Shown one piece after another: positions 8,722-27,772 of a stretch of DNA of 51,460 nucleotides. A model generated the notes under the pieces. The model was not told the DNA's origin, searched no databases, and worked only from the letters and a program-made list of their open reading frames with translations. Made by a program: the position numbers and the translations under genes. Each line of letters opens with the position of its first letter. Within the stretch, counting starts at the first letter, position 1. The stretch comes from an uncultured Smithella sp. (GTDB taxonomy: Bacteria > Desulfobacterota > Syntrophia > Syntrophales > Smithellaceae): assembly GCA_964491435.1 (NCBI GenBank), contig CAZBGE010000004.1:1-51460 (forward strand), written 5' to 3'.

Positions 8722-11460
8722 TTACCGGGCGTTGAAAACATCATGGATTACCTGGGCCAGTTTCTCCATGGTATAGGGTTTTTGAATGAAAGCATTGACA
8801 CCCTGCTCCATGGCAAAAACCACTCTTTCATCCTGTTTGAAACCAGACGCCATGATCACCTTGACCCGGCTGTCGATCTTCTTCATTTCCAGATAAACCT
8901 GTTCTCCCGATTTTTTAGGCATGACCAGATCCAGCAGGACCCCCTTGATTTCCGCATGCCGCTGTTCGAAGATCCGCAAAGCCTGCTCGCCGTCGGAGGC
9001 GGTGATAATCTCGTAACCGCATTTTTTCAAAATAGCATCAGCCGTATGCCTCATGACTTCTTCATCATCCACGACAAGGATCATTCCCTTGCCTTGAGGA
9101 ATTTCAAAATACTTCTCCTTTGCTTCCACCGGCGCCTGGCCATGAAAAACGGGAATATACACATCAAAAGTCGACCCCTGGCCGGCTTCGGAGTAAATGT
9201 TGATGAATCCGTCGTGCTGATGGACAATGTTATAAACCATCGAGAGACCGAGGCCCGTTCCTTTTCCCTTTTCCTTGGTGGTAAAAAACGGAACGAATAC
9301 TTTGGATACAGTCTGTGCATTCATGCCAACCCCCGTATCCTGAACGCAGATCCGCCAGTAGTCGATTGGTTTCGCTTCGGGACGGATGCCGCAGAATGCT
9401 GCGTCGGCCTCGATTTTTTCCAGGCTGACAGTCAAAACGCCTCCTTTCAACTCTCCTTCGGCGCGCATGATTGTCATGGCGTGGCTGGCATTGACGCAGA
9501 GATTCAGGAGCACCTGTTCCATCTGTGTCGCATCGGCATAAGCCAGGGCGGCTTCCCCGGGAACGGAAATCCGGATATCGATGGATTTGTCAAACGTACT
9601 TTCACAGATCTTCCTGACATTCGAAACCGTCATTTTCAAATCGATGGGCGCAAACTGTGTTTCTCTTCTGCGGGACAGGGTCAGAAGCTGCTGCACCATC
9701 TCCACGGCCCGTTGCCCTGATTTGTCCATGATATTCAGGCATTTTTTCAGCTTTTCCGGATCGATCCGCTGTTCTTTCCGCATCTCGAATTGCAGGAGGG
9801 ACAAGGTGCTGACAATTCCTCCCAAAACATTGTTAAAATCGTGGGCCAACCCTCCCGCCAGCGTGCCAATCGTTTCCATTTTTTGGGCCTGAAGGAGCTG
9901 CTCTTCCATTCTCAGTTTATCGGTGACATCGCGGATACTGCCTCGCAAAACGGTCAGGCCGCCTTCATCATAAATGGCGATGCAGTTGTCCTCACCGAAG
10001 ATATGGTATCCGTCCCGGCGGGGAATTTTATGGACGGTCAGGAATTTCACCTGTTTTTGCTCAATATTCCTGGAAATCTCCGCGAAACCGGCTTCGCCAA
10101 TCAGATCCTTCATGGTCAGTCCCCGCTTCAGATCATCCGGAGAATGGCCCGTCAGCCTGTATCCCGCCTGGTTTAAATAGGTCACCTTCAATCCGGCATC
10201 CGCTTCATAAATAATATCAGGCGTATTGTCAGCCAGCGCCCGGTACCTTTCCTCGCTCTCCCTCAGCGCCTTTTCCGCCCGCTTGTGTTCCAGAATCTCC
10301 GAATGCAGCGAGTTGCTGTACTGCTGCAGTTTTTCCATAAAGAAGTTGAAATATTTGGTCAACCGTCCCACTTCATCATCGGCTGAAGACGGCATGCGCA
10401 CGGAGAAATCATCCATGTCGCCCGTTGCAAAATATCCCATGATCTTTCTGATCGGCCTTGTAATGGCGGAACTGATCCAAAGCGTGACAATGAAAACGAT
10501 TGTGAGGGCCAGCAGGGAAACAAAGATAATCATGTTTCGCAAATGTTTGAGCGGCTCATAAAACTCGTCCGTATAGCCCGAGGAAGCGATAATCCAGTCA
10601 AGTTCCGGAATATAGTTTAACATGACGATTTTCTCACGAGGCTTGTCTTCGTTGGCATTTTGCCAGTTATAAACCAGCTTGCCGACCTTCTGCTTGATAA
10701 TCCGCTCGGCGGATTCCCGCAAATCGGGATCCGCCAGGTCATGGATATTGCCGCGCCGGAAGGGATGGACAATGAGGTTGCCGCGCGAGTCAATGATGTA
10801 CGAATAGCCAGTTTTACCGAAACGCATGGACAGAACACTGCTCCGTATGTCATTGACGCTGATCAGATGAATAAATTCCGCACGGTAGGAAGACACGGAG
10901 ATAATCCAGTCCCACGGCTGGAAGTGGGTCATGTAGAGGGCCTTCGGTTTAAACTCGGTTTCGCCGGGATTCTTCCATTCATAAGTCAGATAGCCCTCTT
11001 TGCGCTTCATCTGCTCCCGCACAAACTCATGATCGATGAAGCTCTTGCCTTCAACGCCGGGGACGGGATGAACAATGGCGACGCCATCCTTGTTTGTGCA
11101 GTAGATATAGCCTGTTTTACCAATGACCTGGCTGAACAGGACATTGCGCGACCGGCTCTTCGCCTCCTCTTCGGTAATCAAACCCTTTTTGTATTGCCGG
11201 TAAAAGTTTGCCACAATCATTTCGTTGGTCTCGGCCAATGCCCGCAAGTAATTTTTGATGGAAACATCCGCCGAGGTTTTCACCATGTTCAGCAGCATAT
11301 CCGTCGAGGAGGTCAGACGGGCCTCGATGTCGGCTTCGAGCATCTTTTGCGTAAAATGATAGATGGAGAAACTGGTTAACGCGATGACGGCGACCAGTGT
11401 CACACAGGTGCTCAGCAACAGTTTATATCGCACAGGCAAATCGGCAAAAAAGCGCTTCAT
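8722..11460 (-). CDS. Hybrid sensor histidine kinase (TM, Cache, HAMP, PAS, HisKA, HATPase, receiver)
   Basis: AHDFNN H-box, NLCVNA, DTGVGM, FFTTK, GTGLGL; receiver VVDDE...LLD...P...KP. Confidence 0.92.
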   Translation of the reverse strand: MKRFFADLPVRYKLLLSTCVTLVAVIALTSFSIYHFTQKMLEADIEARLTSSTDMLLNMVKTSADVSIKNYLRALAETNEMIVANFYRQYKKGLITEEEAKSRSRNVLFSQVIGKTGYIYCTNKDGVAIVHPVPGVEGKSFIDHEFVREQMKRKEGYLTYEWKNPGETEFKPKALYMTHFQPWDWIISVSSYRAEFIHLISVNDIRSSVLSMRFGKTGYSYIIDSRGNLIVHPFRRGNIHDLADPDLRESAERIIKQKVGKLVYNWQNANEDKPREKIVMLNYIPELDWIIASSGYTDEFYEPLKHLRNMIIFVSLLALTIVFIVTLWISSAITRPIRKIMGYFATGDMDDFSVRMPSSADDEVGRLTKYFNFFMEKLQQYSNSLHSEILEHKRAEKALRESEERYRALADNTPDIIYEADAGLKVTYLNQAGYRLTGHSPDDLKRGLTMKDLIGEAGFAEISRNIEQKQVKFLTVHKIPRRDGYHIFGEDNCIAIYDEGGLTVLRGSIRDVTDKLRMEEQLLQAQKMETIGTLAGGLAHDFNNVLGGIVSTLSLLQFEMRKEQRIDPEKLKKCLNIMDKSGQRAVEMVQQLLTLSRRRETQFAPIDLKMTVSNVRKICESTFDKSIDIRISVPGEAALAYADATQMEQVLLNLCVNASHAMTIMRAEGELKGGVLTVSLEKIEADAAFCGIRPEAKPIDYWRICVQDTGVGMNAQTVSKVFVPFFTTKEKGKGTGLGLSMVYNIVHQHDGFINIYSEAGQGSTFDVYIPVFHGQAPVEAKEKYFEIPQGKGMILVVDDEEVMRHTADAILKKCGYEIITASDGEQALRIFEQRHAEIKGVLLDLVMPKKSGEQVYLEMKKIDSRVKVIMASGFKQDERVVFAMEQGVNAFIQKPYTMEKLAQVIHDVFNAR

Positions 11461-19712: not shown

Positions 19713-19968
19713 CGGAGCAAAAAAATTTTCTGGCCTATAACATCTATCAGTGGTTATTTCAAGAAACGAAAACCACCCCTGATATTTGACGGAAGACCGC
19801 CGCCGCCAGCTGAATCATTTCTTCGGAGTTTTTTTAAGGTTCATCCAATTGATGCGTGCTTTTTATCTCAATTACCTTGTGTTCTAAAAATTATCAATTG
19901 GTATAAGATACCTTGGGACACCGGGGTAAAATGAGAGGAATGAATGCATTTGTTGTGTGCTGTGAACT

Positions 19969-20847
19969 TTATTTATCTGAATATTCTTCCCATTTAAAGT
20001 CTAGATTATTTTCATCTCCCGAACGATAGATATTCATCAGGGCAATCAGCGAACCATCAGCGCAATCGTCATTAAAGTCCTTTCCAATCTTCCTCAATAA
20101 AAATATAACTTCGGGATATGAGGCAAACCGAACAGGAATGTTTTTTGGAGGAACAACAGAATCAGGTGTAAATCCATCAGGCAGTTGAGTCCATTCACTT
20201 TTGGAAGAATTTAACGCTATCCATTTGCCGCGGATCTTTACGATTACGAATTGATGGCCGTTTATTGTTATTTCTTTGCCCCGTTTAGCCAGCGCCTGAT
20301 TGTAGTTATCTGACTTGCTGCTGATCGCATAACGGATGTCTTCGGGATCAGCCACCAGATGAAGCGCTTTTATCACCGCGATGAATGACCTGGCGTAATG
20401 TGAACAACCAAAAGCCGCTTTTGTTTTGATAATGTCATCCGCAGAAGGCGCGAAAAAGACGTCTGCCGGGCTCGACCGCATAAATTTGGAATGCCAAGCT
20501 TTAAGAATTAGTTTTTGCTCAGATGAAAGATTGAATGTGCAGAGAAATCCGAGTTTCAGAGCTTCCAGTTTATCGAAGATAATATACTTACCTGGTTCGA
20601 TAGCGTTTGTTTGGACACCAAGTTTCGGATCTGTCATGATTTCTGACACTTTTATTAATTGGGATAGTCTATCCTTGTTGCCATATGAATCAAGAATGGG
20701 CCTTACGACATTGAACGCATACTCATTGACTGTTGGAGTTACTTCAATAAGAGAACCAACACCTCCAGAATAAACGGGTGAGGAAATCAAACAGAAGATG
20801 GAAATCATGATTAAGGTCGTAAATTGATTTATAAAGCTTTTAAACAT
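19969..20847 (-). CDS. Exported hypothetical protein, putative transglutaminase-like Cys protease fold; cassette-borne
   Basis: N-terminal signal-like segment; GCSHYA...GHQFVIV...WIALN spacing resembles a C-H-D/N triad; AT-richer than flanks. Confidence 0.55.
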   Translation of the reverse strand: MFKSFINQFTTLIMISIFCLISSPVYSGGVGSLIEVTPTVNEYAFNVVRPILDSYGNKDRLSQLIKVSEIMTDPKLGVQTNAIEPGKYIIFDKLEALKLGFLCTFNLSSEQKLILKAWHSKFMRSSPADVFFAPSADDIIKTKAAFGCSHYARSFIAVIKALHLVADPEDIRYAISSKSDNYNQALAKRGKEITINGHQFVIVKIRGKWIALNSSKSEWTQLPDGFTPDSVVPPKNIPVRFASYPEVIFLLRKIGKDFNDDCADGSLIALMNIYRSGDENNLDFKWEEYSDK

Positions 20848-20888
20848 GCTTATTTACCCTATCCATGAATATTATGAAATATTTTGTC

Positions 20889-20932
20889 ACCCAACAGCGA
20901 AGCTGAGGGCAAGCGCAGCTCCGCTGTTGGGA
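20889..20932 (-). other. Short (44-bp) attC-like site
   Basis: Minus strand TCCCAAC-AGCGG-AGCTGCGC-TTGCC-CTCAGCT-TCGCT-GTTGGGT; GTTRRRY core ends about 40 bp before the next ATG. Confidence 0.5.
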
Positions 20933-20967
20933 CGGAAACGGCTATCAATTTCGTCCTTTCGTCTCCG

Positions 20968-21033
20968 CCCCATCGACGAATTCACCGGGAGTGGCCCGGC
21001 AGGGGCACGATCCAGTGCAATGTCTGGTTGGGC
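20968..21033 (-). other. attC site (66 bp) with degenerate R' box
   Basis: Minus strand GCCCAAC-CAGAC-ATTGCACTGG...CCGGTGAAT-TCGTC-GATGGGG; extra base in L''; core GTT mutated to GAT. Confidence 0.7.
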
Positions 21034-21137
21034 AATGCTCTTCATTCATATCTATCTGTCCTCTGTCAAGCGCTGACCCCTTTGTTTCTTCCTGCTCCAG
21101 AAGCCGCAGTTTCTGAGGAGTTCGCTATGGCACTGCT

Positions 21138-21722
21138 TCATTTCCAGTAGGCCCTGTGAGGCGCGAGCAGTTCGTCTTCAAGTTCCGGAACGGGGCCTAC
21201 TACCCTGATGGGCTTCTGCCCTGCCGTGAAGACTTTGCGACACGGCAGGTTCATCGTGGGGTTTCTCTTGTCGGCGCCGGTCAGTTCCTTAGCTGTAATT
21301 TCCTCAACGCCATAGACCACGTTTCCGATGTTGGCCCAATAGATGTTTCCGGCACACATGGCACATGGTTCGACATTCGTCACAAGGGTACACTTCCACA
21401 AATAGTCGGTGTCGTATTTAACAAATGCCTGCCGTGCGATCACTGTTTCGGCATGGTCCATCAAACTCACGTTTCCCTGTTTCATCAGCACCGTCTCGCC
21501 ATCCGGCGCCACAAGCACTGCGCCAAAGGGCGGGTGATCAGATTTCACTGCTTCCTTGGCGGCTTCATTGGCAGTCCTCAGATGTTTGAGGACCTGCTGG
21601 TGATTGAGGGGAAACCCCTCCAGATCCGAAGAGGGTTTCCGGTTCCAGGAGCCGTTACCAACGCAGGCGCCCAGGGTCAAAAGCAGGAATGCAAGCGAAA
21701 CTATCATTTTGATATTCTTCAT
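21138..21722 (-). CDS. Zn-dependent nucleoside deaminase (CDA/guanine deaminase-like) with lipoprotein signal
   Basis: HPPFGAVLV, HAE, EPCAMC motifs; lipobox LGAC at Cys20. Confidence 0.8.
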   Translation of the reverse strand: MKNIKMIVSLAFLLLTLGACVGNGSWNRKPSSDLEGFPLNHQQVLKHLRTANEAAKEAVKSDHPPFGAVLVAPDGETVLMKQGNVSLMDHAETVIARQAFVKYDTDYLWKCTLVTNVEPCAMCAGNIYWANIGNVVYGVEEITAKELTGADKRNPTMNLPCRKVFTAGQKPIRVVGPVPELEDELLAPHRAYWK

Positions 21723-21814
21723 TTCAATTCTCTCCTTTCGGTTCTTATTTCAAGGCGGCGCGTGGATCTAACCGCCTACACCAATTGACATTTGTCATCT
21801 TCTCCTATGATGCG

Positions 21815-21873
21815 GCCCAACCGCGAAATCACCGGCGAGAGGAAAGAGCGTCCGGTGGATTGATTGGTTCGGC
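21815..21873 (-). other. attC site (59 bp)
   Basis: Minus strand GCCGAAC-CAATC-AATCCACCGG...CCGGTGATT-TCGCG-GTTGGGC; extrahelical C in L''; perfect GTTRRRY core. Confidence 0.85.
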
Positions 21874-22089
21874 AATTCGTTCTCTTGGATCCTTTATAGC
21901 CCGAAGAATATCTTTAGTGGTAGCTTTGGTTTTTATACCGGGTATTGTAAAGGGCGACCGGGATACTTTTTTGAAGGCAATTGTAAATACTTCACCTCCG
22001 CGCCTTGGGATAATCACATCTTCCTCACGGGCGATATTAAGAATCTCGGCAAAACGCTGTCTTGCTTCCGAATAGGTATATACTTTCAT
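21829..22089 (-). CDS. Phd/YefM-family antitoxin
   Basis: MKVYTYSEARQRFAEILNIA N-terminus; start moved to 22089; 3' end runs into the attC. Confidence 0.8.
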   Translation of the reverse strand: MKVYTYSEARQRFAEILNIAREEDVIIPRRGGEVFTIAFKKVSRSPFTIPGIKTKATTKDILRAIKDPRERIAEPINPPDALSSRR

Positions 22090-22093
22090 AATC

Positions 22094-22483
22094 TCACTCC
22101 ATAATTTTAATGCCGATTCTTCTGGCAATCTCTCTCATCTGCCCATCAAGAGCTAATAAGGGGCTACGCTGATTAAGAGCGCATTCTAAAAAACAGGCAT
22201 CGTACGCATAAATATTTTACTCTAGGGCTATCTTCAATGCCGCGGCAATATGAATGCGTCGAAAATCAACGGGAATATGCGCAATCGAATCCCATGTTAA
22301 AATAGCCTCATCGGCCAGTAACGTTCTTCTTTTTACCATTGCCGTCAATGCATTGCCAATTTCAAAGGGCAAAACTTCCGGTGCAACCAGATCATGTCCT
22401 TCCGTCAGACTGATTATTAATTTCTTTTCAGGCTCATTGAGAGTTACCGCAATAAAAGTATTTGTATCAGCAATAATTTTCAG
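22094..22483 (-). pseudogene. PIN-domain (VapC-like) toxin with internal stop and non-ATG start
   Basis: KIIADTNTF...FEIGNAL...ALE*NIYAYDACFLECA...LLALD; in-frame TAA at 22217-22219; expected start codon is CTG. Confidence 0.8.
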
Positions 22484-23220
22484 GAGTACAACTGTACGCC
22501 AACAATTCGATTTTGTAAAGCCGAACGGTTGAACACCGCAGATGCTCTGTACGGTTTCGCCGCACAAGATTTGCATCGCGCGGCAAATTTAAGTCCGCGT
22601 AATCTTCTTAACTGTGACTGACTTCGGGGCGAACTGGAATGTGCAAGCGCCGAAAGGAGGCTTAACGCCCACTTGCATGGGGCGCCAGACGACAAACTCG
22701 AAGACACCATCTTTCCTGATGACCACGTCGAGTATGGCCTCTGCCTTCTTTGGAACACCTTGAGCAATTTCGGCCTTTTATCGAATCGCCACGCATTCCG
22801 CGACCTCCCTGCCATCGGCATTGTTAACGCCGTTTGCGTGCGCTATGCCGCTTTCCTCCAACTTCACCTGGTATTTTGTGGCGCCGGAATGGGTTTTTTG
22901 CAGGCCATGACGCGCCTGCACACCAGCGGCATCTCATAGGGTCTTCTTGTAATTACCTTTTTCAAACACAAAAAAGCAGTGCGGAATACACCAAATTATG
23001 CTATCAGTACCCGCTGTATTACACTGTATTATCTTCCTATTATTTGCTTTCAAAGAATCATCAGGCGGCAAGAAAAGGTTCGGGCGGTCGTAATACGAAC
23101 AAGGGGTTCCGTGCGCCCCTTTGGATATCCCGGTTATCAGGCTATGCGCCGAGAAAGCAGGCAATGCCGCCGCCAAAATCAGCAGCCGAATGTGAACCGG
23201 AATTAACGATAGGAGAGAAA

Positions 23221-24357
23221 ATGAAGCTATTCATAAGAATCACTGTTTGTGTTGCATGCATATTGTCTTTCGTTGCCGCGGTTCAGGCCGGAGAAATCAA
23301 AATCGGCGTGGCCGAGGCCTTGACCGGTCCTGTCGCAAAATATGGCGTACCTATCAAAAACGGATTCATCCTCGCAGCCGAAGAAATCAACGCCGCCGGC
23401 GGCATTCATGGAAACAAAATCAAACTCATTGTGGAAGATGAACAGGCAAAAAAAGAAGAAGCGATCAATGTCTTCAAGAAATTTATTTTCCAGGATAAAG
23501 TCATCGCCATCTTTGGCCCAACCCTTTCCAATTCGGCTTTTGCCTCCGACCCGTTCGCCAATGCCCGGAAAACCGTCGTCTTCGGCACATCCAATACGGC
23601 GGAAGGCATTACCGCCATCGGCCCTTACGTTTTCCGTAATTCCATTGCGGAAGCGGACATTCTGCCGATCGTGATCAAAACGGCGGCAAAAAAACTCAAA
23701 CTGAAGAAAGTCGCCATGATTTACGGCAATGATGATTCCATGACCAAATCCAGCCATGAAATATTTTTAAGAGCCGTTCATGCGGAAAAATTACAGGTGC
23801 TGACCATACAGACTTTCAGCAAGGGAGATATTGATTTTTCCGCTCAGCTCACCAAAATTAAAAGTCTTCATCCCGACGCCATTATCTGTGCGGCCCTGGT
23901 GGAAGAAGCATCGAATATCATTCTGCAGGCCAGGAAACTGGGCTTGCCGGTTAAAGTCAAATTTATCGGAGGCAACGGATTTAACACGCCCAAACTGATT
24001 GAAATTGCAGGTCCGGCGGCGGAAGGATCGCTCAGCGGCAGTCCATGGTTCCTGGATGACACCGGCAAGAAAAATCAGGCGTTTGTCAAAAGCTATGCCA
24101 GAAAGTACGGCATCGCTCCGGATCAATTCGCCGCTCAGGCCTACGATGCGCTTTACATAATGGCGGAAGGGATCAAGGCCATCAAGATAACCGGCAATTT
24201 GGCGCAGGACAGAACTGCCTTGCGCAACGCCCTCGCTCAAGTAAAAAGCTTTCAAGGAGTAGGCGGCCCTTTCTCATTCAACCTAAATCGTGACGCAGAA
24301 CAAAAGGGGCGCGTCTTAACCATTAAAAAAGGCAAATTCGCAATTTTTGCCGAATAG
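23221..24357 (+). CDS. livK: Branched-chain amino acid ABC transporter substrate-binding protein
   Basis: Signal peptide MKLFIRIT; ALTGPVAKYG, AAQAYDA; GGAGA RBS; start moved from 22834. Confidence 0.85.
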   Translation: MKLFIRITVCVACILSFVAAVQAGEIKIGVAEALTGPVAKYGVPIKNGFILAAEEINAAGGIHGNKIKLIVEDEQAKKEEAINVFKKFIFQDKVIAIFGPTLSNSAFASDPFANARKTVVFGTSNTAEGITAIGPYVFRNSIAEADILPIVIKTAAKKLKLKKVAMIYGNDDSMTKSSHEIFLRAVHAEKLQVLTIQTFSKGDIDFSAQLTKIKSLHPDAIICAALVEEASNIILQARKLGLPVKVKFIGGNGFNTPKLIEIAGPAAEGSLSGSPWFLDDTGKKNQAFVKSYARKYGIAPDQFAAQAYDALYIMAEGIKAIKITGNLAQDRTALRNALAQVKSFQGVGGPFSFNLNRDAEQKGRVLTIKKGKFAIFAE

Positions 24358-24381
24358 TTTGATTGAGGTGAAAGAGAAAAG

Positions 24382-25263
24382 TTGTTTTTACAACAATTTG
24401 CCAACGCCGTGGTCCTGGGATCGGTTTACGCGCTTTTCGCCCTCGGTTTTACCCTGATTTTTGGTGTTCTGGAAGTCATCAGTCTGGCGCATGGCGCCGT
24501 GTTTATGATTGGCGCCTTTGCCGGTCTGACGGTTGTTGCAAAACTTAATGTCAGTCCCGTCACCGCGATTCTGACCGGAATGATGGCCTCAGGTCTGATT
24601 GGCTGGTTTATCGACCTGACGGCCATTCGTCCGTTAAGAAGAAGAAAATTTCACCATCTTGCGCCAATGATCGCCACGATTGGGTGCGCTACGATTATCA
24701 CCAGTATCTTCCAGGGAATTTTCGGCGCCGAGATCTATCGATTCCCCTTCGATTTCATGCCCGCCACATCCTTCAACTTCTGGACGATACAACTGACCTT
24801 GCTGCAGATCATTATCGTCAGCGTGGCTCTGATCTTGATGATGATTATCATCTTCCTGCTCAATAGAACAAAGTGGGGCAAGGCCGTGCGCTCTGTTGCG
24901 GAAAGCCCCCGCACGGCAGCCCTGCTCGGCATTCCGGTGGAACGCGTTTTTCAGCTTACTGCCTTTTCGGCTGCGGCTTTGGGCGGAGCCGCCGGCGTGC
25001 TGACGGGAATCAATTTCAACGCCGTTCACGCTTTTATGGGCGGACCGATCATGCACCGGGGAATCGCCGTGATCATTCTGGGCGGCATGGGAGATATCAG
25101 AGGCGCAGTGCTGGGCGGTTTGATTCTGGGGTTTGCCGAGATTATGAGCGTCGCCTATCTGTCTTCCGATTTTCGGGACGCCATCTCCTTCGGCCTGTTG
25201 TTTATCATCCTGCTGATCAGACCGGCCGGCATATTCGGCGGCGCTACCGAGCGGAAAGGATGA
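24382..25263 (+). CDS. livH: Branched-chain amino acid ABC transporter permease
   Basis: GSVYALFALGFTLIFG, LAHGAVFM, IILGGMG. Confidence 0.9.
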   Translation: MFLQQFANAVVLGSVYALFALGFTLIFGVLEVISLAHGAVFMIGAFAGLTVVAKLNVSPVTAILTGMMASGLIGWFIDLTAIRPLRRRKFHHLAPMIATIGCATIITSIFQGIFGAEIYRFPFDFMPATSFNFWTIQLTLLQIIIVSVALILMMIIIFLLNRTKWGKAVRSVAESPRTAALLGIPVERVFQLTAFSAAALGGAAGVLTGINFNAVHAFMGGPIMHRGIAVIILGGMGDIRGAVLGGLILGFAEIMSVAYLSSDFRDAISFGLLFIILLIRPAGIFGGATERKG

Positions 25264-25270
25264 AGGCGGC

Positions 25271-26104
25271 ATGAACGAATTATTGATGTCCCTCTGGCAA
25301 ACCTATAACACGCTTTTTTATACTGTGATTGTGCACGGCATGCTGGCGCTTTCGATCTATATCACTCTCGCCTGCGGGCAACTGTCGCTGGGTAACGCCG
25401 CTTTTATGGGAATCGGCGCCTACACAGCCGCTCTGTTCACCATGAAGCTGAACGCCCCTTTCGGCCTTTCCCTGCTGGCGGGCGGCATGCTGCCGGCCTT
25501 CATAGCCTTGATCATCGGGGCGCCTACGTTACGGCTATCAGGCGTTTATCTGGCCATGGCCACGCTTGGTTTCGGTGAAGTTGTGCGGGTAGCTTTCTTA
25601 AATATGAGCATCACCGGCGGTTCATTGGGCCTGAACGGCGTGCCGTCCAAAACAGAGCTCTGGCATCTCATTGCGGTCATGGCGGTATTGATTTATTTTT
25701 TCCAGAAACTGAAGAATTCCCGCTTCGGCCGGGCATTGGAGGCCATCCGGGAAGATGAAGTGGCCGCGGCAGTCATGGGTATCCGGACCACCTGGTTCAA
25801 AGTATGGGCCTTTGTTATCGGAGCTTTTATCGCCGGCGTGGCCGGCGGCCTGAATGCTCATTTTACATTTTTTCTTTCGCCGCGCGAATATGGTTTCGAC
25901 TTTGCAGTGGATATTTTAACTTTCGCTATTCTCGGAGGAACCGGAACCTACTGGGGACCGTTGGCCGGCAGCACAATCCTGACCATTCTGCCGGAAATGC
26001 TGAGATTTTTGGGACCTTACCGGTTGGCGCTCAACGGCCTGATCCTGGTTCTGGTCGTGATTTACCTGCCCAACGGAATCATCACGGTAAAAAAGAAGGA
26101 CTGA
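25271..26104 (+). CDS. livM: Branched-chain amino acid ABC transporter permease
   Basis: GQLSLGNAAF, YLAMATLGFGE, AIREDEVAA. Confidence 0.9.
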   Translation: MNELLMSLWQTYNTLFYTVIVHGMLALSIYITLACGQLSLGNAAFMGIGAYTAALFTMKLNAPFGLSLLAGGMLPAFIALIIGAPTLRLSGVYLAMATLGFGEVVRVAFLNMSITGGSLGLNGVPSKTELWHLIAVMAVLIYFFQKLKNSRFGRALEAIREDEVAAAVMGIRTTWFKVWAFVIGAFIAGVAGGLNAHFTFFLSPREYGFDFAVDILTFAILGGTGTYWGPLAGSTILTILPEMLRFLGPYRLALNGLILVLVVIYLPNGIITVKKKD

Positions 26105-26116
26105 CGGAAAGGCGTA

Positions 26117-26878
26117 ATGTTAAAACTGGAAAATATCATCAAGGATTACGGTGGGATGCGCGTACTGGACTCGCTGTCCCTGCAAATTGGCGAAGGACTG
26201 ATTTTTGGTCTGATCGGCCCGAATGGGGCCGGCAAAACGACCCTGTTCAATATCATCAGCGGCCTTGCCCGTCCCACGTCAGGCCGGGTTATCTTTAACG
26301 GAACAGACATCACGCATTTTTCCTCCCAAGCCATCGCCGCCGCGGGAATGGGCCGGACATTTCAAAATATCAGAATTTTTAAAGAACTCTCCCTTCTGGA
26401 AAACGTCCTGACCGGCATGCATCGCCTTTATACCTATTCTCCGGCGGCTATGCTGCTGAATCTTCCGGTGCAGCGGAAGGAAGAAAAGATTATGCGTGAA
26501 AAAGCCATGGAGCTCCTGGATCTCTTTCACCTGGCAGATCAGGCGAAGCGCCAGGCGGAAAGCCTTTCCTATGGAAAGCAAAGAAAACTGGAACTGGCCC
26601 GCGCCCTGGCCACCTCACCGAAGTTGCTTCTGGTGGATGAACCGGCGGCAGGCATGAATCCCGCGGAAACGGAAGAGTTAATGAGCGAGATCGTACAGAT
26701 CAACAACCGGGGATATACGATCTGCATGATTGAACACGACATGAAATTCGTGATGGGTTTGTGCCGGCGGATAGCGGTGCTGAATTTCGGAAAATTGATC
26801 GCCCTGGGCGCCCCCCAGCAAGTCAAGTGCGATCCTCAGGTCATTGAAGCTTACCTTGGAAAGGACGCCTGTTCATAA
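26117..26878 (+). CDS. livG: ABC transporter ATP-binding protein
   Basis: GPNGAGKT, RTFQNIR, LLVDEP, IEHDM. Confidence 0.9.
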   Translation: MLKLENIIKDYGGMRVLDSLSLQIGEGLIFGLIGPNGAGKTTLFNIISGLARPTSGRVIFNGTDITHFSSQAIAAAGMGRTFQNIRIFKELSLLENVLTGMHRLYTYSPAAMLLNLPVQRKEEKIMREKAMELLDLFHLADQAKRQAESLSYGKQRKLELARALATSPKLLLVDEPAAGMNPAETEELMSEIVQINNRGYTICMIEHDMKFVMGLCRRIAVLNFGKLIALGAPQQVKCDPQVIEAYLGKDACS

Positions 26879-26880
26879 CG

Positions 26881-27585
26881 ATGATTCTGGAACTCAAAGA
26901 TATTTTCGTAAACTATAATCACATCCAGGCATTGCAAGGAATATCCCTTCATATCGAAGAAGGAGAGATCGTGGCGCTCATCGGCGCCAACGGCGCGGGC
27001 AAAAGCACCGCTTTAAATGCTATTTCCGGTATGCTGAAAATTATCAGCGGAGAAATTATCTATGCTGGACGTCATATCACCGGGCATTCCCCTCATACGA
27101 TCGTCCGGCGCGGCGTCATCCAGATCCCGGAAGGGCGGGCTATTCTTACTACATTAAAGGTAAGGGAAAATCTTGAAATGGGAGCATTCGCCCAAAAAAG
27201 CAGCGGAATGAAAGAAGATCTGGACGCAGTGTTCACCCGCTTTCCCATTCTCCGGACAAAAGCGGAACTCCCGGCGGGAACTCTTTCCGGAGGGGAACAA
27301 CAAATGCTGGCCATCGGAAGAGCGCTGATGGCCAAACCCAGGCTGCTGCTGATGGATGAGCCATCCATGGGTCTTTCTCCCATCCTGGTCCGTGAGATTT
27401 TTCACATTATTGCGGATATCAACAAGCAGGGCGCCAGTATTCTTCTGGTGGAACAAAACGCTCAAATGGCTCTCGAAATCAGCCAGCGGGGATACGTGCT
27501 CGAAGCGGGACGCATTGTGCTAGAAGACAGTTCCGCCAATCTGCTGCATAACGAAAAGGTCATCCATGCTTATCTTGGCGGATGA
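26881..27585 (+). CDS. livF: ABC transporter ATP-binding protein
   Basis: GANGAGKS, LSGGEQQ, LMDEPSMGL, EQNA. Confidence 0.9.
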   Translation: MILELKDIFVNYNHIQALQGISLHIEEGEIVALIGANGAGKSTALNAISGMLKIISGEIIYAGRHITGHSPHTIVRRGVIQIPEGRAILTTLKVRENLEMGAFAQKSSGMKEDLDAVFTRFPILRTKAELPAGTLSGGEQQMLAIGRALMAKPRLLLMDEPSMGLSPILVREIFHIIADINKQGASILLVEQNAQMALEISQRGYVLEAGRIVLEDSSANLLHNEKVIHAYLGG

Positions 27586-27772
27586 AGGAAATCAAGGACA
27601 TGGAAATTTACGGGCAACTGCCTGCAACGATTCACCTCCCAGACGCGCGGCTTAATACTTGTGTAATCATCACCATCAAGGCCCGACTTAAAACGGCGCT
27701 TGCAAATTTGTTCCATCTTTAGTTAAACAGGCAAGACAAATTGTTCAAGAAATGAAAGATTGGAAATAAGCT

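Follow-up and report, generated by a model that had tools for sequence, protein, structure and literature searches.

Integron gene cassettes are also found in arrays that are not accompanied by an integrase. Such attC clusters without an integron integrase (CALINs) are defined as at least two attC sites on one strand, less than 4 kb apart, without an integrase (Cury et al. 2016, PMC4889954); they carry unrelated, co-oriented genes of mostly unknown function between the attC sites, with neither intI nor an intI pseudogene nearby, and most of them are small (Cury et al. 2016, PMC4889954; Neron et al. 2022, PMC9024848). Here we describe a locus that is like them in each of these respects, located in a 51,460-nucleotide stretch of an uncultured Smithella sp. 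(assembly GCA_964491435.1, contig CAZBGE010000004.1, forward strand), which we refer to as the window. We are highly confident that positions 19941-22864 hold a fragment of an integron gene-cassette array, a CALIN with no integron integrase nearby, and that this fragment is decaying. A sequence-only reading of the window had proposed exactly such an array, and covariance models, comparisons of cassette boundaries and decay mutations bear it out; the sequence features it listed are all present where it placed them. The host is a Smithella/Smithellaceae bacterium found in wastewater, digester, bioreactor and landfill metagenomes, with the array in its chromosome and a GcvT that is 90% identical to the GcvT of an uncultured Smithella metagenome-assembled genome (MAG).

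The array holds five co-oriented genes on the minus strand, namely a conserved hypothetical gene (geneX), a PIN-domain toxin, a Phd/YefM antitoxin, a deaminase and a 292-codon open reading frame (ORF292). Read along that strand, a geneX pseudogene fused to the PIN-Phd cassette is followed by attC site 1, the deaminase gene, attC site 2, a 44-nt hairpin, ORF292 and finally an attC that is truncated after its L'' box. Sites 1 and 2 both lie on the minus strand, 782 bp apart.

Site 1 (21815-21873, minus strand, 59 nt) is the attC of the PIN-Phd cassette and has the canonical R''-L''-L'-R' architecture, as found by covariance models and a structural scan. Its minus strand reads GCCGAAC-CAATC-AATC[C]ACCGG-A-(loop)-CCGGTGATT-TCGCG-GTTGGGC, in which R'' (GCCGAAC) and R' (GTTGGGC) pair at 6 of 7 positions, the unpaired 5-nt spacers CAATC and TCGCG separate the R from the L boxes, and the L box, formed by L'' (AATC[C]ACCGG) and L' (CCGGTGATT), has one extra base. 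When the plus (bottom) strand is folded, a G (21857/8) and a T (21851) bulge out as extrahelical bases. The R' box, G↓TTGGGC (the arrow marks the crossover), is the junction with the deaminase cassette. Site 2 (20968-21033, minus strand, 66 nt), the attC of the deaminase cassette, was found by the covariance models and belongs to the same sequence family as site 1: its layout is that of site 1 with one mismatch, and long stretches of sequence are common to both. Its R'' box, GCCCAAC, is perfect and complements the cassette 5' end TTGGGC. Its R' box has decayed to GATGGGG, which does not fit GTTRRRY, and the GTT triplet at which crossover takes place has thus been lost.

We scanned both strands of the 51 kb with a structural attC scanner that was written after site 1 had been seen and is therefore post hoc. 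Site 1 was its only match. When the window was simulated as a first-order Markov sequence, loose matches numbered 0.19 per simulated window, and 0 of 150 simulations produced one as good as site 1; related Syntrophales DNA (1.26 Mb) gave six weaker and longer matches. We also built two covariance models from attCs of metagenomic arrays located beside integron-integrase genes. R1 was trained on 17 attCs selected through a pattern taken from sites 1 and 2, which biases it in favour of the query; for this reason R2 was trained on 14 further attCs of these arrays, none of them matching that pattern. With R1, site 1 scored 51.8 bits (E-value 1e-12) and site 2 31.7 bits (E-value 9e-7), with the rest of the window at 10.6 bits or less. 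With R2, site 1 scored 33.6 bits (E-value 3e-6) and site 2 23.6 bits (E-value 1e-3), and nothing else in the window was matched. The covariance-model check that the sequence-only reading had proposed for 21815-21873 thus returned matches to two attC models. As a control, R2 recovered all 12 attCs that follow cassette genes on three class 1 integron plasmids at 22.9-54 bits, with one weak extra match in 39 kb; the cassettes of this control include aac(6')-Il, blaVIM-2, aac(3)-Ia, aac(6')-Ib4, estX, a HAD hydrolase, aadA2, cmlA1, aadA1, qacL and arr-3. On the 1.26 Mb of Syntrophales loci R2 found nothing at an E-value of 1 or less. An Rfam scan of the whole window gave no match, the window has no tRNA genes, and promoter and terminator scans performed at chance level. 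Metatranscriptome contigs cover only scraps of the region, at a depth of 2-4.

The sequence family of the two sites links them to integron integrases. Sites 1 and 2 have a 24-base pattern in common, AACCANNCANTNCACNGG-N(8-38)-CCGGTGANTTCG, which had 0 chance matches in the window and matched 20 JGI metagenome contigs. On these contigs the matches are preceded by RYYY, and most are followed within 2-6 nt by GTTRRRY, neither box being part of the pattern. A tblastn search with IntI1, using a query 100% identical to annotated IntI1, found IntI-like sequence on 4 of the 20 contigs (L101, L111, L100 and L109). The best family for an N-terminal integrase fragment on L101 is TIGR02249, 'integron integrase' (141.6 bits; XerD reaches 28 bits), and the fragment is divergent from two cassettes with attCs; on L111 an intI N-terminus lies divergent from seven attC matches that follow it in 5.6 kb. 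The window itself contains neither intI nor an intI remnant, in agreement with the sequence-only reading: tblastn with IntI1 and with the L101 fragment across the 51 kb returned a best E-value of 0.76, and the Pfam matches on record for window positions 9969-31722 include no Phage_integrase. Neither an attI site nor a Pc promoter is present at the array. The locus is thus not a complete integron, having no intI and a 5' end truncated in geneX, and the position expected for intI is occupied by a divergent liv operon.

The strongest evidence, which is independent of the models, comes from other loci. Judged by these sequence comparisons, what lies between the sites is a set of mobile gene cassettes that have G↓TT as their boundaries. 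All three cassettes (PIN-Phd, deaminase and ORF292) recur elsewhere at 81-94% identity next to different neighbours, and in each of them similarity starts at the G↓TT crossover, at 22526, 21821 and 20895, respectively. In all three, moreover, R'' complements the first bases of its own cassette. The pairs are GCCGAAC with G↓TTCGGC for PIN-Phd and GCCCAAC with G↓TTGGGC for the deaminase; for ORF292, R'' is ACACAAC and the 5' end is G↓TTGTGT in other arrays and G↓TTGGGT in the window. In other sequencing runs from wastewater and landfill, variant deaminase and PIN-Phd cassettes are covered far more deeply than the host flanks, and contigs of other runs diverge right after GCCGAAC (22526) and around 21811-21827. 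Joints that skip a cassette at its boundaries were not seen in the contigs of these runs.

The PIN-Phd cassette and the gene upstream of it carry several of the decay mutations. The PIN-domain (VapC-like) toxin gene (22094-22483, minus strand), recognized as PF01850 on read-through, is a pseudogene with CTG in place of its ATG start (22483-22481) and a TAA in place of a His codon (22219-22217); intact 129-residue copies are found in loci L095 and L131. The Phd/YefM-family antitoxin (21829-22089, minus strand; 86 residues; PF02604 at 30 bits, TIGR01552) is intact and 92% identical to the L095 copy. It starts 4 nt after the PIN stop codon, and its last 45 nt or so overlap attC site 1. The pair is therefore not an intact type II toxin-antitoxin module. 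The sequence-only reading had noted that toxin-antitoxin cassettes stabilize arrays. Here this is impossible now: with the toxin gene dead and the antitoxin intact, the pair no longer has this effect. We observed that the order of toxin first and Phd-family antitoxin second, 4 nt apart, is kept in L095 and L131 and is the reverse of the usual VapBC order.

Comparison with L095, which carries intact PIN, Phd and attC, places both ends of the cassette. The two loci are 90% identical from 22526 (G↓TTCGGC) to 21818 (the R' box of site 1), and the L095 flanks are unrelated to the window on both sides. The half-site at 22520-22526 (minus strand), G↓TTCGGC, is the 5' boundary of the cassette and the exact complement of the site 1 R'' box GCCGAAC, as expected if the cassette was once circular. 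No attC is recognizable upstream of it, the covariance model giving only 8.2 bits there, and geneX and PIN-Phd are therefore fused. The geneX pseudogene (22589-22921, minus strand), assigned by comparison with an intact homologue, derives from a 110-residue conserved hypothetical protein; an in-frame TAA (22778-22780) replaces the codon for Tyr48 of the intact homologue. That homologue, P0241, is the one intact relative and lies in a four-attC array (L131/L132), where the PIN gene likewise comes after it. The match between the two arrays ends at 22864, at about codon 19, which places the 5' end of the window's array inside the gene; the first 19 or so codons and the preceding attC have been replaced. 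In L095 (135-687), an inverted pair of a CopG/RHH antitoxin and a MazF/PemK toxin (MazEF-like) follows right after the PIN-Phd attC.

The deaminase cassette (block 21092-21821) carries a 194-residue lipoprotein gene (21138-21722, minus strand; PF00383) with a cytidine-deaminase fold and a lipoprotein signal peptide (LTLGAC). The protein is closest to guanine deaminase and to nucleobase deaminases of the CMP/dCMP-deaminase fold (PDB 1wkq and 8wlw, E-value about 1e-10), and its signal peptide suggests that it would act outside the cytoplasm. Copies in other arrays are 90-94% identical; those in L115 and L117-L120 are 90-92% identical in DNA from G↓TTRGGC onwards (window 21821) and sit downstream of different genes and of different attCs. 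On L116 (SCQF01000040.1, in a MAG labelled Verrucomicrobia), IntI fragments lie 400 nt upstream of the deaminase and divergent from it. The deaminase is a widely travelling cassette.

Several further observations concern deaminase copies. On L116 (4266-4590 and 4950-5000) the stretch that resembles the other copies begins about 45 nt farther inward, at CACG↓TTGGGG, which suggests a secondary crossover site in the cassette leader. Copies 85-94% identical (P0121-P0153) occur in MAGs labelled Verrucomicrobia and Desulfarculus and on many unlabelled metagenome contigs, and in some wastewater and landfill runs the deaminase is 10-fold deeper than the Smithella flanks. At positions 4400-6300 of L115 (ENA scaffold MUNK22-1...scaffold_690), a small integrase-less cluster comprises BrnT/BrnA, the same deaminase and a glyoxalase; it is wedged between glnA and pheST of a different genome.

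ORF292 (19969-20847, minus strand; cassette block 19941-20896) encodes a 292-residue secreted protein with no family match, in which Cys148 (motif FGCSHYA) and His198 are invariant. An AlphaFold model (pLDDT 73) had no significant match in Foldseek (best E-value 0.14), and a PDB sequence search found nothing; the top non-significant fold matches were a transglutaminase, a putative cysteine protease and arylamine N-acetyltransferases. We hypothesize from the model that ORF292 may be a papain/transglutaminase-like enzyme. Copies 81-84% identical are found in arrays L121-L128, and an integrase N-terminal fragment lies near the copy in L123 and in L125. The similar block opens with G↓TTGKGT, corresponding in the window to the right arm of the 44-nt hairpin (20895), and ends at a common ACACAAC-AAATG-CATTCA, with the blastn block ending at 19941-19943. 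Past CATTCA the window diverges, and neither L' nor R' follows. The truncated attC of the ORF292 cassette (19941-19958, minus strand) thus retains R'' (ACACAAC), the spacer AAATG and the start of L'' (CATTCA). ACACAAC (19952-19958, GTTGTGT on the plus strand) complements the cassette 5' end GTTGTGT. In Desulfosarcina cetonica (L129/L130, 4001-5733) we observed an ORF292 homologue (80% identity) followed directly by a gene with a weak match to the OTT_1508 deaminase family. ORF292 in the window likewise neighbours a deaminase, from another family, which could be coincidence or a functional link.

Some of the remaining elements that had been read as integron features held up less well. Besides sites 1 and 2, both of which the models match, the sequence-only reading had counted a third attC at 20889-20932 (minus strand), which is missed by R1 and R2, as is the truncated site at 19941-19958. 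This third element is a perfect 44-nt hairpin, TCCCAAC...GTTGGGT, with a 16-bp stem that folds far better than shuffled sequence (z = -5.07), and its right arm is the 5' boundary of the ORF292 cassette. It has no bulges and no spacers. A collapsed attC or an empty cassette has probably left it behind; there is only a slight chance that this bulge-free hairpin is a functional minimal attC. We also considered 20889-21033 as a single 145-nt attC and rejected it, as its L boxes do not pair. Among four proposed half-sites, those at 22520-22526 and 19952-19958 are supported by comparison with other loci, and the other two mark no boundary in any context seen: 21766-21772 lies within the conserved 5' leader of the deaminase cassette and 22660-22666 within a coding region. 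Perfect RYYYAAC/GTTRRRY 7-mers number 9 in 19952-22666, against 3.06 expected from their density in the window, and a lone half-site is therefore weak evidence. Likewise, the suggestion that the genes here are AT-richer fits the ORF292 and PIN-Phd cassettes, which are low in GC, and fails for the deaminase cassette, which is not.

Certain observations weigh against reading the locus as a mobile cassette array with attC sites. The folding energies of site 1 (z = -1.06) and site 2 (z = -0.26) are no better than those of shuffled sequence; as folding energy fails to separate either site from shuffles, it is not a useful criterion here. The training of the models is not fully independent of the query, R1 having been built from attCs chosen with the pattern from sites 1 and 2 and R2 from attCs found with R1, unlike the class 1 control and the cassette boundaries, which are independent of it. 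Site 2 is marginal with R2 (E-value about 1e-3, with rough calibration). Finally, all 14 contigs of the strain are structurally identical (at least 99.9% sequence identity, no structural variants), and no rearrangement of this copy was observed; every contig with exactly the same proteins comes from this strain, and contigs of the same strain without structural variation say nothing about mobility. Two independent assemblies of the strain end contigs at 19921 (L003/L013) and 19681 (L006), just past the truncated end of the array, which could reflect strain variation or low coverage.

The array is part of a larger insertion. In nine related Smithellaceae genomes about 130 bp separate def from a divergent radical SAM gene, compared with 8 kb in the window, where a 7.9-kb insertion (19769-27690) comprises the array fragment and a livKHMGF-like ABC transporter operon of five plus-strand genes without attC (about 23.0-27.6 kb). 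The pentamer AAACG is found at the def-side junction (19764-19768) and again at the radical-SAM-side junction (27691-27695); relatives carry one copy at this spot and the window two. Terminal inverted repeats were not found at either end of the insertion, nor a recombinase within it. An inverted repeat across the def-side junction (19745-19759 and 19770-19784, 80% complementary) was discarded as no better than many chance pairs. A 46-residue ORF called at 27582-27722, probably spurious, spans the other junction. In all relatives, a small native hairpin, ATAAC...GTTAT, adjoins the insertion spot. In the Smithellaceae chromosome OY821638.1 (L081, about 9200-9400) a different insert of about 190 nt sits at this same point, flanked by the radical SAM gene and def, and the spot may thus be a recurrent insertion site. 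One idea, to which we give little credence, is that the array and the liv operon moved together as one 7.9-kb block into this recurrently used spot. If true, the move of such a block without its own recombinase would point to an unrecognized, IntI-free spread or relocation of cassette clusters.

Together, these results suggest the following history. Each cassette would originally have been a circular element, inserted or excised by the tyrosine recombinase IntI through its attC, folded from the bottom strand, with crossover at the G↓TT of R'. Recombination of a circular cassette at this point would explain why each cassette starts with a TTxxxx that is complementary to its own R''. The same cassettes with different neighbours and breakpoints at G↓TT may be read as an indirect sign of IntI recombination. 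The array would then have arrived or been rearranged without IntI and decayed by point mutation and deletion. As both of its ends are cut at points other than recombination sites and lie inside the 7.9-kb insertion with the liv operon, arrival or rearrangement by a process other than IntI is most likely. We infer that the array is now essentially fixed because PIN-Phd has no attC 5' of it, site 2 has no GTT, the last attC has neither L' nor R', and intI, attI and Pc are all missing. At most site 1 could still be recognized by an integrase supplied from elsewhere.

If such an integrase were encoded elsewhere in the genome, the locus could be the live satellite of a complete integron, with a distant IntI excising or copying cassettes through site 1. 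We consider this unlikely. Site 1 does look entirely canonical, showing the two extrahelical bases and retaining its GTT, about half of the surveyed CALINs are in replicons that encode IntI (PMC4889954), and the same cassettes circulate in the same type of habitat. However, excision needs two functional flanking sites, which no cassette here has, 2 of the 5 genes are already pseudogenes, and a live satellite sits poorly with strain contigs free of structural variants and with cassette boundaries free of skipping joints. Insertion of cassettes by an integrase directly at a secondary genomic attG site (5'-GWT-3') has been demonstrated in experiments and put forward as a route to small CALINs (bioRxiv 10.1101/2022.09.11.507474), in which case the locus would not be the remnant of an integron. 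The sequence CGTTT, with its GTT, stands at either junction of the 7.9-kb insertion, and the small cassette cluster on L115 likewise lies between housekeeping genes, glnA and pheS. The ends of the array (inside geneX and at the truncated attC) are, however, about 4.8 kb and 170 nt from the insertion junctions, no attC-like structure is found at the def-side end, and the insertion also includes the five-gene liv operon without attC. As the junctions are far from the cassette boundaries and an operon without attC is included, an attG origin is possible, not favoured, and in our judgement distinctly improbable.

Alternatively, the palindromes might be ordinary hairpins between genes (terminators or REP-like repeats, for example) whose likeness to attC is due to chance. 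The unremarkable folding of sites 1 and 2 would fit this, as would the chance frequency of RYYYAAC/GTTRRRY 7-mers, about one per kb, and the likeness of the 44-nt hairpin to a plain stem-loop. Against it, similarity blocks with other loci end exactly at the G↓TT of the sites, and close sequence relatives lie in arrays beside intI. Neither the rest of the window nor 1.26 Mb of related genomes contains a further copy, no T-tract follows the palindromes, and the terminator scan marks nothing at their positions. We regard this explanation as barely credible and retain the reading of a decaying array of integron cassettes.

The locus is a further example of a well-documented and common type of element and leaves knowledge of integrons unchanged; as CALINs are common, it is an ordinary case of modest interest. 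It serves as a worked example of how an array decays after separation from its integrase, illustrated by a toxin that is gone before its antitoxin, the fusion of cassettes on loss of an attC, a mutated crossover triplet and a half-deleted attC. In addition, in habitats of the wastewater type, the same cassettes (deaminase, secreted Cys/His protein and PIN-Phd), 80-94% identical, circulate among MAGs that carry the labels of different phyla, a recurrence that is useful for annotation and for cassette surveys.

The locus differs from described CALINs in being a fragment cut at both ends at points other than recombination sites, with one attC that lacks its crossover triplet, another that is half deleted and two pseudogenes, and in lying inside a larger insertion with a metabolic operon. 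With the sedentary chromosomal integron arrays of L111 and L101 it has in common the attC sequence family AACCAnnCAnTnCACnGG...CCGGTGAnTTCG and the organization of its cassettes, including toxin-antitoxin cassettes; those arrays have intI or its remnant divergently upstream, whereas the window has the liv operon there and no attI. The cassettes of class 1 mobile integrons (aadA, aacA4, blaVIM-2 and others) share the attC architecture, and with R2 their clinical attCs score in the same range (22.9-54 bits) as sites 1 and 2 (33.6 and 23.6 bits). In contrast to them, the array here carries no resistance genes and lacks a Tn402/Tn21 context, intI1 and a 3' conserved segment, and its cargo is a toxin-antitoxin pair, a secreted deaminase and a secreted protein of unknown function. 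Finally, type II toxin-antitoxin integron cassettes (VapC/PIN with Phd/YefM) resemble the PIN-Phd cassette in carrying both genes 4 nt apart in one cassette; here the toxin comes first and is dead, and only the antitoxin is left.

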